Origin: Mobula hypostoma
Lineage: Eukaryota
Direction: 5' to 3'
DNA length: 64,000 nt
NCBI RefSeq assembly: GCF_963921235.1
Contig: NC_086097.1
Span: 37,388,001 to 37,452,000 of the forward strand
Shown here: positions 16,311 through 59,445 of the stretch, piece by piece
How positions within the stretch are numbered: position 1 is the first letter of the stretch
How the letters are laid out: each line of letters begins with the position of its first letter
The notes under the pieces: generated by a model
Database searches by the model: none
What the model was told of the DNA's origin: nothing
The model's input: only the letters and a program-made list of their open reading frames with translations
Made by a program: the position numbers and the translations under genes

Positions 16311-17358
16311 TTACTTTGGTACATTACTGATACATTTAGATTATTTTACTGTCTTATACACCAGGCTGCAAAGAGATTCTTTGTTCACAAGAAGTTCACG
16401 GAGTAAACAGTACATGTGGTATGAATAAATACAACAATAAATACAATGGCAAGTACCAAAAAACAAAATGGGCAAAAGTGCAAAAAAGCAGATCCTACTG
16501 TATCTACATAAATATGCAATTCATCAGTCAATACACGATTTCTCCATTTTTAAAGTGACAATTCTTTTCAAAAGCTGTGAAAATATATTGCCAAAGATTC
16601 TTATTAATAAGAAATGTTTTCTTTTAATGTAGATTTTCCTGTGCATTTTATGTCATCATTGGTAAAAATCTGAAAAAAAAATCCAGTCTCTAAAGGTGCA
16701 AAAATATGCTGTCAGTTTTGAAAATTAATCTGCAGGAAATGGTACTTCAGAACATCAGACAATACAGAGTACAGTGTATATTTCCATCTTCAATATTACT
16801 GCATTGGCTCCTTCAGGTTGTTATAGCCAGGGTTGGTAATGGGGACAAGCTCCCACTACCTATTAAATGCTCCCAACAACGTGCACTTCAAATAGCCTCT
16901 GAGAGCCAAGTCCAGCTCCTGACCTTCATATGTAGCTTAGCTATGAAGCCCGGCAGAACTGTTTCTACTGACAGGTGAAGGGGCAGAGGCAGGTCACTGG
17001 TGCCTTAAAACCAGTCGCTTTGGACAGATGGAGCTCGTGGTTCGCAGCTCAGAAGGAAAACTCTGCTTTCAAATCTCCACTGCCTTGCGGCTATATCCAC
17101 TCATTGGGAAGGTTTTGGGAGTAAATCCCGAGGATAAAATCCAGAGCTGGAGTCCCTAAGGCAGTCCTACAATGCTGACTGCCAACTCCTGCAACGCTCC
17201 TGGTACCAAACTCTGTTGGTCTCTGCCGTTCCTTTGGATACCTAAGAACATAAATACATCAAACAACAGGAATTCTGCAGATGCTGGAAATTCAAGCAAC
17301 ACACATCAAAGTTGCTGGTGAACACAGCAGGCCAAGTAGCATCTCCAGGAAGAGGTGC

Positions 17359-17394
17359 AGTCGACGTTTCAGGCTGAGACCCTTCGTCAGGACT
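17359..17394 (-). ncRNA. Minimal type I hammerhead ribozyme (Penelope pLTR), intact core
   Basis: Reverse complement AGUC-CUGACGA-AGGGUCUCAGCCU-GAAACGUC-GACU: stem I AGUC/GACU, core CUGANGA and GAAA, palindromic ACGU stem III, GUC site. Confidence 0.8.
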
Positions 17395-18024
17395 AACTGA
17401 AGGAAGAGTGAGTAAGGGATTTGAAAGTTGGAGGGGGAGGGGGAGATCCAAAATGATAGGAGAAGACAGGAGGGGGAGGGATAGAGCCAAGAGCTGGACA
17501 GGTGACTGGGAGACCGCTTTGCTGAACATCTACGCTCTGTCCGCCAGAGAAAGCAGGATCTCCCAGTGGCCACACATTTTAATTCCACATCCCATTCCCA
17601 TTCTGACATGTCTATCCACGGCCTCCTGTAAAGATGAAGCCACACTCAGGCTGGAGGAACAACACCTTATATTCCGTCTGGGTAGCCTCCAACCTGATGG
17701 CATGAATATCCACTTCTCTAACTTCCGCTAGGCCCCACCTCCCCCTCGTACCCCATCTGTTACTTATTTTTATGCACACATTCTTTCTCTCACTCTCCTT
17801 TTTCTCCCTCTGTCCTTCTGAATATACCTCTTGCCCATCCTCTGGGTCCCCCCCCCCTTGTCTTTCTTCCCGGTCCTCCTGTCCCATGATCCTCTTGTAT
17901 CCCCTTTTGCCAATCACCTGTCCAGCTCTCGGCTCCATCCCTCCCCCTCCTGTCTTCTCCTATCATTTTGCATCTCCCCCTCCCCCTCCAACTTTCAAAT
18001 CCCTTACTCACTCTTCCTTCAGTT

Positions 18025-18060
18025 AGTCCTGACGGAGGGTCTCGGCCTGAAACGTCGACT
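18025..18060 (+). ncRNA. Minimal hammerhead ribozyme, core variant (CUGACGG)
   Basis: agtc-ctgacgg-agggtctcggcct-gaaacgtc-gact; one core substitution. Confidence 0.6.
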
Positions 18061-18289
18061 GCAACTCTTCCTAGAGATGCTGCTTGGCCTGCTGTGTTCA
18101 CCAGCAACTTTGATAAATACGTCAGTTGTGTGGAGAGGGGGAGCTTGCTACATGGGCAACAGCTTGCTGTCCATATCGTACTGCCCAGGCTTGCGTATCG
18201 AGACAGCTAGGACGCTATACCCATGGTCAGCTCTGACTGACGGAGGCCTCAGCTCACCATTACTGCATTAGGTATCAGAATATACAAAG

Positions 18290-18835
18290 TTAGTCAAAGA
18301 AGGTCTAAGATTTTGCGAATATGAGGGGGCATAATTTTAAGGTGATTGGAAGAAAGTATATGGGGGACTTCAGACAAAACACACAAAATGCTGGAGGAAC
18401 TCAGCAGGCCAGGCAGCATCTTTGGAAAAGAGTAAACAGTCAATGGTTCGGGCTGAGACCCTTTTTCAGGACTCCTTGGCCCAAAACATTGACTGTTTAC
18501 TCTTTTCCATAAATACTGCCTGGCCGGCTGAGTTCCTCCAGCATTTTGTGCGTGCTGCTCGGATTTCCAGCATCTACAGATTTTCCCCTGTTTGTGGGGG
18601 GATTTCAGAGGTGAGGTTTTTACACAGAAAGCTGTGGGTCCATGGAACGTCCTGCATGGGGAAATGGAAAGGCAGATACCTTTAGAGATATTCAGGAGAC
18701 TCTTAGAGAGGCTCATGTATTACAGCAAAATGGGGGGGGGGGCTATGTGGGCAGGAAAGGTTAGACTGATCTTAGAGTAGGTTAAAAGGTCAGCACAACA
18801 TCAAGGGCTGAAGGGCCTGTACTGTTCTATGTTCA
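18290..18835 (+). mobile_element. CR1 3' fragment interrupted by a palindromic pLTR element
   Basis: RGHNFKVIGRKYMGDFR | GDFRGEVFTQKAVGPWNVL; ttctatgttc tail. Confidence 0.8.
18375..18593. mobile_element. Palindromic non-autonomous Penelope pLTR element
   Basis: Arms cacaaaatgctggaggaactcagc... and ...gctgagttcctccagcattttgtg; flanking duplication tgggggacttcaga / tggggg(g)atttcaga. Confidence 0.8.
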
Positions 18836-40580: not shown

Positions 40581-40764
40581 TTTCTTAAAACTCTCTTAGT
40601 TCAAAATAAACTGTTTCAATGCCTACTCACAGACGTACTATGTATCATTCAAGCCAAGTTATAAACTAAGATCTTTAAGCTCCATAGCTCCATGCATGGG
40701 AGGCCACCACATGTCCCCAGGAATGTCTCAATGGGAAAAAAAGCAAGAGATGGATTTTAAAAGT

Positions 40765-41060
40765 TCCTTTCTTGACCTCAAAGCATCTTGTCAGCAAATT
40801 AATATTATTGAGACATTGTTATTGTATTGAAGAAATCATTGCATCCAATTATGATACAGCTGGATCCAACAAACACTGATGAGGCAACGTGTGTTAGTGA
40901 TGTTGGTAAGGGATTTGTATTGGTGAGGAGAATTCTCCCTGCTACTCTTCAACATTTCACTATGAAATAGAGGACAGATGGAGGACCATACATTTGTTCA
41001 GTACACCCAAGGTACTACATTGTGTTGTTTGGGTGTGTTCTGTGCTCAGGTTTTTAGAAT
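40765..41060 (-). mobile_element. Ancient DeuSINE (SacSINE1/AmnSINE-like) remnant
   Basis: Colinear degenerate match to my recollection of the DeuSINE consensus: caaagcatc...aaacactgatgag...gtgatgttggtaaggga...attgg...ctccctgctactcttcaa...gacagatggagg...tgtgctcagg. Confidence 0.55.
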
Positions 41061-41159
41061 TATTGTATATAACTGGGGAATTATTTTACCTGAGACAGTG
41101 GAAGTGTATTCATAAATAGCCTTAGAAGATAACTAAGGAGAAAATATTGCAGGGGTATG

Positions 41160-41678
41160 CAGGGGTGCAGCGGTAGCTGGAGCGCACCCAGCACATCTTT
41201 AAGAAAAAAGCCGAAATAAACAAGCTAATTAATTAGGTGCCGCCCGGCACGTAAATGTCGGCCCAGATCAGAGGCGATTGCCGATTTCACTTGCTCTACG
41301 CGATGTTCACTCCTCTTTCCAGGGCGCTGGAGCCTTTAGCTGTTCCATTGTTCGGTCAATTTAAATGCCAGCCCAGACAGGCTGAAAAGACAGGGCTGTC
41401 AGGATTGAAGTGACATGTTGAATCTACACAAACTTGTAATAAAGTATGTGCACTGCCGTGCTTTCTTTGTAATGACAGTTATGTGCTGGTCCCAGGAAAC
41501 TTCTCAGAGAGAGAAATGTTGATCCTTAATGCCGAAGAATTTAAAGTTATTCACCCTCTCCACCTCAATTCCTGTAATGAAAACTGGCTTCTGGGCGGTA
41601 CCTAATTAATTAACTTGTTTATTTCGGCCTTTTTCTTAAGGATGTGCTGGGTGCGCTCCGGCTACTGCTGCACCCCTG
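41160..41678. mobile_element. hAT-type non-autonomous element with 86-bp TIRs and captured internal sequence
   Basis: TIRs 41160-41245 and 41593-41678 (6 mismatches, begin CAGGGG); perfect 8-bp TSD GGGGTATG at 41152-41159 and 41679-41686. Confidence 0.9.
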
Positions 41679-42083
41679 GGGGTATGAGATGAAGCAGAGA
41701 GGTAGGATTATCTTGATTTCTCCTTAAGAACCCATGTAGGCTCAATTAACCATTCGATATTTTTTAGAGCGATAGATTCACACAGGAGGGGTGTGGGACA
41801 GGTGGCAGAGAAGGAGTGCCGGGGCGAGGGGTGGTGCGGGTGTAGACACACACAGCCCCAAGACACCAGCAAGGACATTTAATTCCAAATACTCGGATAT
41901 GTGATCGTTATAGAATATCTCTCTGGTGCTTCCTGCTCCCTCCCCTCTCTCCTCCCCTTCCCCTTCCCATTCTCAGTCCACAATACAGACCCATATCAGA
42001 ATCAAGTCTATCATCACTCAAATATGTCATGAAATTTGTTGTTTTTTGCAGCAGCAGTACAGTGAAGATACATAAAATTGCTA

Positions 42084-56244: not shown

Positions 56245-57200
56245 ACACAATAAGAACAGCTGGTCGGTTAATAAAAATTGGGTTAAAGTTTCAAATCCAG
56301 GGTCCTTTGTCAGAAGTAGAAAAGAAAAACAATGTTGGCATTAATTTGTAGAGAAGGTGAGAGCAGGGGTGGGTATAAGAAAGGGAATATCTGTGATAGG
56401 CTGAGGTCAGGATTACAGTGAAGATAAGTAGCAGAATTAATGGCAGCAGTTAGAGATAATGCAGACAAAGGAGTTTAAAATATTGCTAAATGGAGGGCAG
56501 TCTAATGGAGGAAATGAGTCATTATCACTGATGGATGACTTATAGTGAAATTGCCAATTCCAATATGGAGAATGAAATCTATTAACAGATGAATAATTTA
56601 ATATGTAGTCTAGAAGACTATAACGTGCCCAGATGGAAGATGAAGTTCAGTTCCTCAGGCTTGCCTTGAATCCCACTGTAACACTGCAGAAGACCACTGA
56701 TATGTAGCTCATAGTCGGAGTAGGATGGAGAATTAAAGTGGCAAACTGCAGGAAAGTCAGGGATGCCCCGTGGATTGGACACAGAAGCCCCACAAAGTGG
56801 TCAATCAATCAGGATTTGGTTTCTCCAATATTGAATATTGTACACTAGATTGGAAGATGTTTCAGCAAATCGCTGTAGTACTTAGAAAGACAGTTTGAGT
56901 CTTCGTATAGTGGGAGGGAAGGTGTGCGAGAACAGGTGCTTCATCTCCATGGTTACATGGGAAAGTTTCATCAGGGAAAGGAGTGGTTGGTGGGGAAGGA
57001 AGCATAAACTAGGGAGTTTTGAAGGAAACTTTGAAATGTAGAAAGGAGAGGGGAAGTTGGGTCAGGTGTACAATTTAGTTAAAGACGGTAAAAATGATGA
57101 AAGATGATTCATTGACTGTCGAGGTTGGTGGGGATGCAGGTGAGAATTCTATCCTTGCCCTAACCAAGAAGAGAAGGGATGAGAATGAAAGGATTACATG
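56245..57200 (-). mobile_element. Old degraded Penelope-like element
   Basis: Reverse strand gives DHFVG..CHFNSPSYSDYELHISGLLQC..IFHLGTL, homologous to the GIY-YIG end at 17505-17731. Confidence 0.65.
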
Positions 57201-57244: not shown

Positions 57245-58100
57245 TATGATAGAGAAGGACGAGTAGGCCATGGGCCCCATGCACCATTCAACTGATGATC
57301 TTTTACCTCTGTGTTACTCACCTGCACTAAATGCAATATATTTTCATTCCCTTAAAATTGACCTCTGGCCTTTTGGATGGAATGACAAAAAATTCACAGC
57401 CTTCTGAGGGAAAAGAAATTCTTCTTACCTTTGTTCCAAGCATCCCGACTTTATCCCTGCATCCTTCATCAAGTCCATAAAAATTTTGTGTATTTCAATG
57501 AGACCTTCACCAGTCATTCATCTAAATTCTAGGGAGTATAGATTCATCCTTCTTGATCTGTCCTCATGCAACAAACTCACCTCTCCAGGAATCAATTTGT
57601 GAACTTGTAATGCCCTCCCTAGATTGCCATTTAGTAAATGAACCAGACCTTGCACAATTACACGCAAACACGAGGAATTCTGCAGATGCTGGAAATTCAA
57701 GCAACACATATCAAAGTTGCTGGTGAACGCAGCAGGCCAGGCAGCATCTCTAGGAAGAGGTACAGTCGACATTTCAGGCCGAGGTCCTGATGAAGGGTCT
57801 CGACCTGAAACATGGACTGTACCTCTTCCTAGAGATGCTGCCTGGCCTGCTGTGTTCACCAGCAACTTAGATGTGTGTTGCTTGCACAATTACAAATGGA
57901 GTTTCACTAAGGTATTACAAAATTGAGGAAAGATTTCTCTACTTTTGTGCCCAAATTTTGCAATATAGGCCATTTTCTCACTTGACTCTCCAAGTGTTTG
58001 ATGGACTTGGATGTAACTTTAAGTGATATGGACATCCAGGCCCCACTGTACATTAATACCAATCATGCTCACACCGTTTAAAAAATATTGTACTTTCTAT
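57245..58100 (-). mobile_element. Old CR1 fragment
   Basis: KLIPGEVSLLHEDRSRRMNLYSLEFR. Confidence 0.65.
57663..57880. mobile_element. Palindromic Penelope pLTR element with 14-bp TSD
   Basis: Inverted arms with cctgatgaagggtctcgacctgaaac at the apex; cttgcacaattaca at 57649-57662 and 57881-57894. Confidence 0.88.
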
Positions 58101-58387: not shown

Positions 58388-59445
58388 CAGAATCAGGTTT
58401 AATATCACCAGCATATGTATCGTGAAATTTGTCAGCATTGCACACACACTCATGCATATATAGTCATGGTCCATTCAGAAATCTGACGGCAAAGGGGAAG
58501 AAGCTGTTCCTGATTTGTTTGAATGAGTACCTCTCCTTTGATGGTAGCCATGAGAAGAGGGCCCGTCCTGGGTGATGCACGCCACCTTTTTGAGGCACGG
58601 CTCCTTGAAGATGCTTGGATACCCTCGAGGCAAGTCCCCATGATGGAGTTAACTCATTTTACTGTTCCCTACAGCTTATTTTGATCCTGTGTAGTAGCCT
58701 CCCCGCAACCCCCACCCTCCCCATAACATTGCAGAAGACCACTGATATGTAGGTCGTAGTCGGAGTAGGATGGAGAATTAAAGTGGCAAACTGCAGGAAA
58801 GTCGGGGGTACCCCCGTGGATTGGACGCAGAAGCCCCACAAAGTGGTCAACCAATCAGGATTTGGTTTCTCCAATATTGAATGTTGTACACTAGACTGGA
58901 AGATGTTAGTGATGCAGTCAGTTAGGATGCTCTCCATGGTACATCTGTAGAAATTTGCAAGTGTCTTCGGTGATATACCAAATCTCTTCAAACTCCTGAT
59001 GAGATATAGCCGTTGTTGTGCCTTCTTTATGACTGCATCAATATGATGGGTCCAGGTTAGGTCCTCAGAGACACCCTGGAACTTTAAATTGCTCACTCTC
59101 TCCACTTCCGATTCCTCTTTGACGACTGGTGTGTGTTCCAACATCTTACCCTTTCTGAAGCCCACAATCAGTTCTTTGGTCTTACTGACACTGAGTGCAA
59201 AGTTGTTCCTGCGACACCACACAACTAGCTGGTATGTCTTGCTCCTGTATGCCCTCTCATCACCGTCTGAGATTCTGCCAACAAAGGTTGCATCATCAGC
59301 AAATTTATAGATGGGATTTGAGCTATACCTAGCCACACAGTCACGGGTATAGAGAGAGTAGAGCAGTGGGATAAGCACACATCCCTGAGGTGTGCCAGTG
59401 TTCATTGTCAGCGAGATGGAAATGTTATTTCCAATCCGCACAGAT
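58388..59445 (-). mobile_element. Rex1/Babar LINE RT fragment
   Basis: NTGTPQGCVLIPLLYSLYTRDC..IYKFADDATFVG..SVSKTKELIVGFRK; cagaatcaggtttaat tail. Confidence 0.9.
58724..58907 (+). repeat. ~184-bp direct copy of 56679-56861
   Basis: Manual alignment: about 11 differences, mostly transitions. Confidence 0.9.

Follow-up and report, generated by a model that had tools for sequence, protein, structure and literature searches.

The window, the whole 64,000-nucleotide stretch of Mobula hypostoma DNA that was analysed, carries at 41160-41678 a short element bounded by long terminal inverted repeats (TIRs) and an exact 8-bp target duplication, with an interior assembled from pieces of other repeats (Table 1).

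Table 1. Features of the element and of the LINE copy related to its cargo, in window positions.
Feature	Positions	Strand	Basis or remark
Left 8-bp target duplication, GGGGTATG	41152..41159	.	sequence comparison
Left TIR, 86 bp, first letters CAGGGG	41160..41245	+	member of a very high-copy family
High-copy arm continued, without partner on the right side	41246..41281	+	contig depth and contig ends
First cargo piece	41282..41410	.	41282-41395 is a second repeat with a 107-110-nt tandem unit; 41396-41410 left unassigned
Second cargo piece, tail-less LINE ORF fragment	41411..41587	-	end of RT into ALKBH8_N-like stretch
Right TIR, 86 bp	41593..41678	-	
Right 8-bp target duplication, GGGGTATG	41679..41686	.	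sequence comparison
Free, truncated LINE copy	58900..59438	-	RVT_1 (E 7.8e-8), then ALKBH8_N (E 9.8e-11)

The two TIR arms are 93% complementary over 86 nt, and their six mismatches are all transitions. Among duplication lengths from 4 to 12, the flanks match at 8 only. Exact 8-mer pairs lying 400-700 bp apart occur in the 64-kb window at 81 of 2,719,093 position pairs, and this element alone came up in the window in a simple scan that required a YAR start, arms of 14 bp and an exact 8-bp duplication. An earlier sequence-only reading had reported 86-bp TIRs with six mismatches, CAGGGG ends and an exact 8-bp duplication, all of which hold on re-measurement. It had also described the interior as lacking a transposase, and the six-frame check agrees: no long or transposase-like ORF was found there, and none of the 61 window ORFs of at least 110 aa falls within the interior. 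No further copy of the arm or the interior was detected in the window by blastn, nor by a search with two short motifs, and Rfam gave no matches in the window. The folding z of -13.8 is accounted for by the two arms, with the centroid structure leaving most of the interior open. The target site resembles the element tip, CAGGGGTA standing ahead of CAGGGGTG at 41152-41167; the likeness may be due to chance or to a preference for end-like sites.

To which superfamily does the element belong? Its 8-bp duplication, seen at one copy, and its TIRs with CAG-type ends make it probably a non-autonomous hAT element, judged from these end features. P elements also combine CA ends with 7-8-bp duplications, so the features are not exclusive to hAT. 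The arms measure 86 bp versus a hAT TIR range of roughly 5-27 bp; the tip that is recognised could be short, as it is in MITE derivatives. Typical hAT TIRs are given as 10-25 bp in the part of the literature available to us (PMC3942097). Like the Mar and BuT2 MITEs of Drosophila, as far as the accessible descriptions go, the element is short and non-coding and makes an 8-bp duplication (PMC3517528, PMC3942097), and the Mar TIR, CAG(G/A)GGTAGGC, begins with CAG(G/A)GG (PMC3517528). Unlike theirs, which are 11-12 bp, its TIRs are long, and their interiors are described in the same accessible text as parent-derived. The duplication also departs by one base from the nnnTAnnn pattern given for Buster elements in that source (PMC3517528): in GGGGTATG, a single site, TA occupies positions 5-6, or 3-4 when read on the other strand, instead of 4-5. 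Motif scans of metagenome, viral and prokaryote contigs returned 0 loci each, the host not being expected there.

Contigs from four sequencing runs (X1, organism A; X5, organism B; X9, organism C; X18, organism F) were mapped on 40880-41929 at 85% likeness. The four were drawn from 23 runs in 8 studies, 20 of which hold part of 40620-41960; the small word shares (0.11-0.22) of 13 further runs were left out of the evidence. Of about 47,000 pieces, 33 joints, 96 variant rows and 1,249 loose ends, the contig evidence draws on 32, 15, 40 and 24, respectively. Summed contig depth is not copy number, as overlapping contigs inflate the sums, and "multi-copy" is the safe reading of it. Left-flank depth, the reference used below, is 4.8 in X1, 43 in X5, 5.6 in X18 and 0 in X9.

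With these contigs the interior can be read as a mosaic of arm sequence to about 41280, some 115 bp of a second repeat and a LINE scrap. The left arm is thereby about 121 bp long in all versus 86 bp for the right arm, and the cargo between arm sequences amounts to about 310 bp. At the first boundary, depth is about 10^4 times flank in bin 41265-41299 and about 10^3 times in the following bin, and among the matches listed two contigs (records 4 and 30) cease matching at 41280. The second repeat is matched at about 86-87% by X18 records 11-15, most of which continue into other sequence, and its tandem unit is drawn from three X5 loop-back joints among the joints listed (41377>41306, 41377>41283 and 41392>41303). 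This repeat is abundant in all four runs. When the 52-aa open frame at 41255-41410 was searched against longer proteins, 18 candidates came back, none at E 0.001.

The LINE scrap stops five bases short of the right arm (41587/41593). A stop codon lies within it, and free LINE copies are missing a segment that it has at about 41498-41535; in three runs a loose end at 41497 appears in 209, 172 and 178 contigs, respectively, and the segment was used as a marker of the cargo-bearing form as opposed to free LINEs. Neither a LINE 3' tail nor a target duplication of its own accompanies the scrap, and no direct repeat of at least 12 nt occurs within the element. Homology ends inside the ORF on both sides, at 41411 on one of them, in agreement with the earlier description of a fragment without tail or duplication. 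That description had placed LINE sequence at about 41420-41590; LINE homology is indeed present, at 41411-41587, and it accounts for no more than 177 of the 347 bases of the interior.

How firm is the homology itself? Searched against the window, the minus-strand frame of the scrap matches 58971-59129 over 59 columns at 42% identity (E 3.8e-9). The corresponding DNA local score is 94.5 versus 45.8 +/- 7.4 (maximum 75) in 300 shuffles, and the top unrelated window tile among 568 scores 65.5. At the DNA level the likeness is weak: blastn found a match (52 bp, E 0.016) at the loosest of three settings only, and 103 of 157 aligned columns are identical (66%). Of two cargo stretches scanned for domains, one has an ALKBH8_N match below the cut-off (E 0.0014; 18.6 bits versus 21) and the other has none. 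Of the colinearity proposed earlier with a Rex/Babar RT segment at about 58980-59130, the homology stands. The clade name comes from motifs, and the LINE is a putative Rex/Babar element, the Pfam domains found being RVT_1 and ALKBH8_N. Our literature search found nothing tying DUF1891 to the Rex1/Babar clade. The window LINE at about 58980 was considered as the cargo donor and rejected, its 66% identity being that of a distant paralogue. Contigs of another LINE subfamily align to the cargo at 85% or better, diverging at 41497; therefore the 58980 LINE is not the donor.

Is this combination of pieces confined to one locus? In three runs the arm bin 41195-41229 reaches about 1-2 x 10^5 times flank depth, and bin 41300-41334 reaches 585-2484 times. 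The arm is 100-1000 times deeper than the interior, so that most family members are without this interior. At the marker position 41520, depth is 1575 in X1 (19 contigs), 15637 in X5 (25 contigs), 460 in X18 (3 contigs) and 11.2 in X9 (1 contig), which relative to flank is 328 in A, 364 in B and 82 in F, with a mean depth per contig of 17, 13 and 27 times flank, respectively. The junction of LINE and right TIR behaves in the same way: at 41574, 41582 and bin 41580-41614, depth is 255-415 times flank in A, 289-475 in B and 80-92 in F. Overall, summed depth at cargo-only positions is 80-475 times flank in these three organisms. We accept the depth reading because marker and junction positions agree.

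Individual contigs join the pieces. X5 record 18 (41248-41421) spans the junction of arm and second repeat, X1 record 6 (41317-41445) that of second repeat and LINE, and X5 record 24 (41547-41678) that of LINE and TIR; among the matches listed none crosses the whole element. Record 24 differs from the window at 18 of its 132 bases, far more than the B flank, which differs from the window by 5 differences and 2 gaps in 303 bases (about 2%), and it therefore comes from a non-orthologous copy. In organism C, a skim of 59 million letters that has no flank cover, records 28 (41166-41365) and 32 (41368-41573) together run through the arm, the second repeat and the LINE scrap, and record 32 carries near 41498 12 letters missing from the window copy. 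The loaded form is very probably a multi-copy family, numbering by a rough estimate between some tens and, at most, a few hundred copies. The sequence-only reading had named several copies with the same interior as support for transduplication, and such copies are what the contigs contain, by depth at cargo-only positions in three organisms and by assembled junctions in the fourth.

The same data bear on the idea that the cargo came in by a one-off repair at this locus after insertion, as in single-copy Pack-TIRs, or that repeats simply overlap here by chance. One-off repair is the usual case in animals, the accessible part of a 100-genome survey counting only four multicopy cases (PMC8277862). 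It sits badly with cargo-only positions that are multi-copy in three organisms, with junctions assembled from the skim of a fourth, and with a loaded form present in F where the site itself is apparently empty. We consider both versions nearly negligible in probability, the contig data from the four runs having largely refuted them.

The state of the site in related organisms supplies the order of events. X1 record 1, identical to the window, runs from the left flank 27 bases into the TIR, and X5 record 17 runs 25 bases into it; organisms A and B carry the insertion at the orthologous site. X1 possibly has the same source as the window sequence and is not independent of it. X1 and X5 have almost no cover of the right flank, and these holes were given no weight as evidence. 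In organism F, X18 record 9 (depth 5.6) matches 40969-41151, and its 60 further letters do not continue into the TIR. The same depth of 5.6 resumes on the right flank, filling bin 41685-41719 and 17 bases more, to 41736, which is 58 bases counted from 41679. The simplest reading of this one contig is that F would have an empty site with one target copy; the corresponding joint is not among the 15 of 33 joints listed. The comparison of orthologous sites that had been proposed earlier thus yields a site in F that appears empty, by way of a single contig. The loaded form is present elsewhere in F and C, and the site in F is apparently empty; therefore the cargo is older than the insertion, and the window copy arrived loaded. 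The earlier view that the cargo was mobilised with the element, and not repaired in after insertion, is supported by the same combination of loaded copies elsewhere in F and an apparently empty site.

How did the element acquire its load? The explanation we favour, and hold to be somewhat probable, is a composite non-autonomous family that captured repeat DNA at an internal break and was then amplified while loaded. An internal break would have struck one copy belonging to a highly abundant MITE-like family, and repair would have copied about 310 bp of genomic DNA from decayed repeats, with the loss of about 35 bp of the right arm. With the ends of this copy intact, a transposase encoded elsewhere could have kept moving the loaded form, as the target duplication suggests, and the form would have spread across related species. 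The window copy would have landed, already loaded, after the split from F and before the split of A and B, judging from one contig per organism. The cargo would be a passive passenger without coding role. Support for capture comes from the scrap being cut inside the ORF at both ends without tail or duplication. A model for animal Pack-TIRs, as set out in the available part of the survey, invokes filler capture at internal breaks with small deletions of the element, by gap filling and fork switching; 370 animal Pack-TIRs were found there, 208 of them hAT (PMC8277862). For the element described here, DNA-templated repair is, by a modest leaning, the capture route we would name.

The same loaded family could have begun differently. 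A 5'-truncated LINE may have retrotransposed into the right arm of the MITE, a later internal deletion or rearrangement removing the LINE 3' end, tail and duplication before the shortened composite was amplified. Truncation at the 5' end is established behaviour of LINE insertions, and the upstream cut end of the scrap adjoins the shortened right arm (41587/41593) as such an insertion would. The cargo is moreover at least 85% like an abundant LINE subfamily, single contigs with internal deletions exist, and the copy in X5 record 24 has a longer inner part. For the LINE piece, insertion with trimming is about as natural an explanation as capture; a second event is needed for the other piece. 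Two events in all, a second repeat left unaccounted for and the lack of any remaining tail or duplication count against this course, as do the stop codon and extra segment shared by many copies, which suggest a template already decayed, or else a change in the founder. We regard it as unlikely, though deserving of attention.

A further reading holds that nothing was captured: the interior would be old subterminal DNA of a longer element, whether autonomous or not, that already held repeat scraps, and the 519-bp form its internal-deletion derivative. Short hAT derivatives commonly arise in this manner, according to the part of the literature available (PMC3942097), and 18 X9 contigs with a GC-rich extension outside 41157 place the arm in a longer element. 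Set against this are the 100-1000-fold greater depth of the arm than of the interior, second-repeat contigs that run on elsewhere and the lack of any transposase remnant seen in the element, and we find this reading quite improbable.

Single contigs carry internal deletions (41269>41421, 41277>41347, 41297>41370 and 41446>41537), and X5 and X18 each show the arm running into an oppositely oriented second repeat (41238 to 41301). On the inner side of X5 record 24, about 500 letters do not match the window element; they fit a longer precursor and a later insertion equally. A longer element also contains the arm, because 18 X9 contigs extend past 41157, with a conserved GC-rich extension common to them among the loose ends listed. 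A CAGGGG end that is internal in part of the family suggests an amplified nested composite or the use of internal ends. In X1 record 2 the match begins at exactly 41160 and is preceded by other sequence, as would fit a true element end at that position. An A>T variant at 41223 accounts for 37-39% of depth in A and B, 29% in C and almost none in F; it is a putative mark of an arm subfamily that expanded after F split off.

Could the family be more prolific than a single interior suggests? Its parent might have been a fold-back hAT MITE whose centre broke repeatedly, with varied fillers each amplified, and the loaded form might use internal CAGGGG sites, the outer ends of its longer parent having been lost. 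The hints are the single contigs with other joints or a longer inner part, the outer extension of the 18 X9 contigs and the lack of a conserved continuation past 41280 among the loose ends listed; the 15 of 33 joints listed include no hairpin joint near 41280 that would show a fold-back parent. We offer this as speculation; if true, the lineage would hold a set of loaded subfamilies, some with pieces of host genes. The general system for shuffling genomic fragments that the sequence-only reading had imagined is not borne out, one main interior having been seen.

What known systems does the element resemble? In the accessible text, RICKSHA, a human element classed as MuDR in Repbase, has 79-bp TIRs and contains the 3' part of HERVL, and an unloaded RICKSHA_0 exists (PMC1431705, PMC5753468). 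Both elements are non-autonomous, with long arms (79 versus 86 bp) around a fragment of an unrelated retroelement, and both have unloaded forms, namely RICKSHA_0 there and, here, those implied by the far deeper arm. RICKSHA differs in being a MuDR element with a HERVL 3' part and LTR, whereas here a tail-less LINE ORF scrap is combined with a second repeat, an 8-bp duplication and CAG ends, in an element young enough for a relative to have a site that appears empty.

Multicopy Pack-TIRs are another comparison. Pack-hAT-N8_XT, for example, is reported in the available part of the survey to contain 291 bp of the CAPSL 5' UTR (PMC8277862). Such elements, as presented there, share with ours hAT-type non-autonomous ends, a foreign insert of about 300 bp, dispersal by transposition and the lack of an unloaded element at the orthologous site. 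They differ in having non-TE cargo with an unambiguous parent and few copies, whereas the cargo here is repeat DNA, no parent was found for it, and copies appear to be more numerous. The survey, in the same part, defines Pack-TIRs by an internal length of 100-5000 bp, non-TE cargo and a unique parent at least 90% identical (PMC8277862). The internal length here is about 310 bp, and several copies with the same chimeric interior are present, as in multicopy Pack-TIRs and transduplication; 41411-41587 is LINE, 41282-41395 is a multi-copy repeat, and the single window paralogue is 66% identical. The element behaves like a multicopy Pack-TIR, yet with cargo that is not free of TE sequence it is not classed as one. 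The label "Pack-type" given to it earlier does not fit in the published sense, which, in the text available, requires non-TE cargo (PMC8277862), both pieces here being repeat-derived. Our literature search found no description of the loaded family, which could still be catalogued in Repbase or Dfam.

The element represents a known kind of accident, in which passenger repeat DNA is carried in a cut-and-paste element, and no host gene was moved. Why, then, is it of interest? Multicopy cargo-carrying TIR elements are rare in the one animal survey consulted, its four cases having few copies each, and how they were born was left open there, partly for lack of close outgroups (PMC8277862). A recent family that offers many loaded copies and rearranged variants, at a site filled in some close relatives and apparently empty in another, could be used to distinguish gap filling from nested insertion with deletion. 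The cargo is dead repeat DNA, and nothing shown so far points to any effect on host genes. On the practical side, repeat libraries are likely to split such a chimera or mislabel it as LINE.

Other repeats were noted in the window. In the right flank of the element, the 44 bases at 41781-41824 are an island belonging to a very high-copy repeat, and all four runs show conserved loose ends at either side of it. A 184-bp direct repeat, 94% identical, is present at 56679-56861 and 58724-58907, 2,045 bases apart; it encloses a fold-back at 57698-57884 (91-nt arms, 5-nt loop), and the free LINE copy ends at its right member. Finally, a 205-bp inverted repeat at 17305-17509 and 17910-18114, 96% complementary and 400 nt apart, derives from a short repeat common in the window, and a second fold-back lies near it at 18379-18553.
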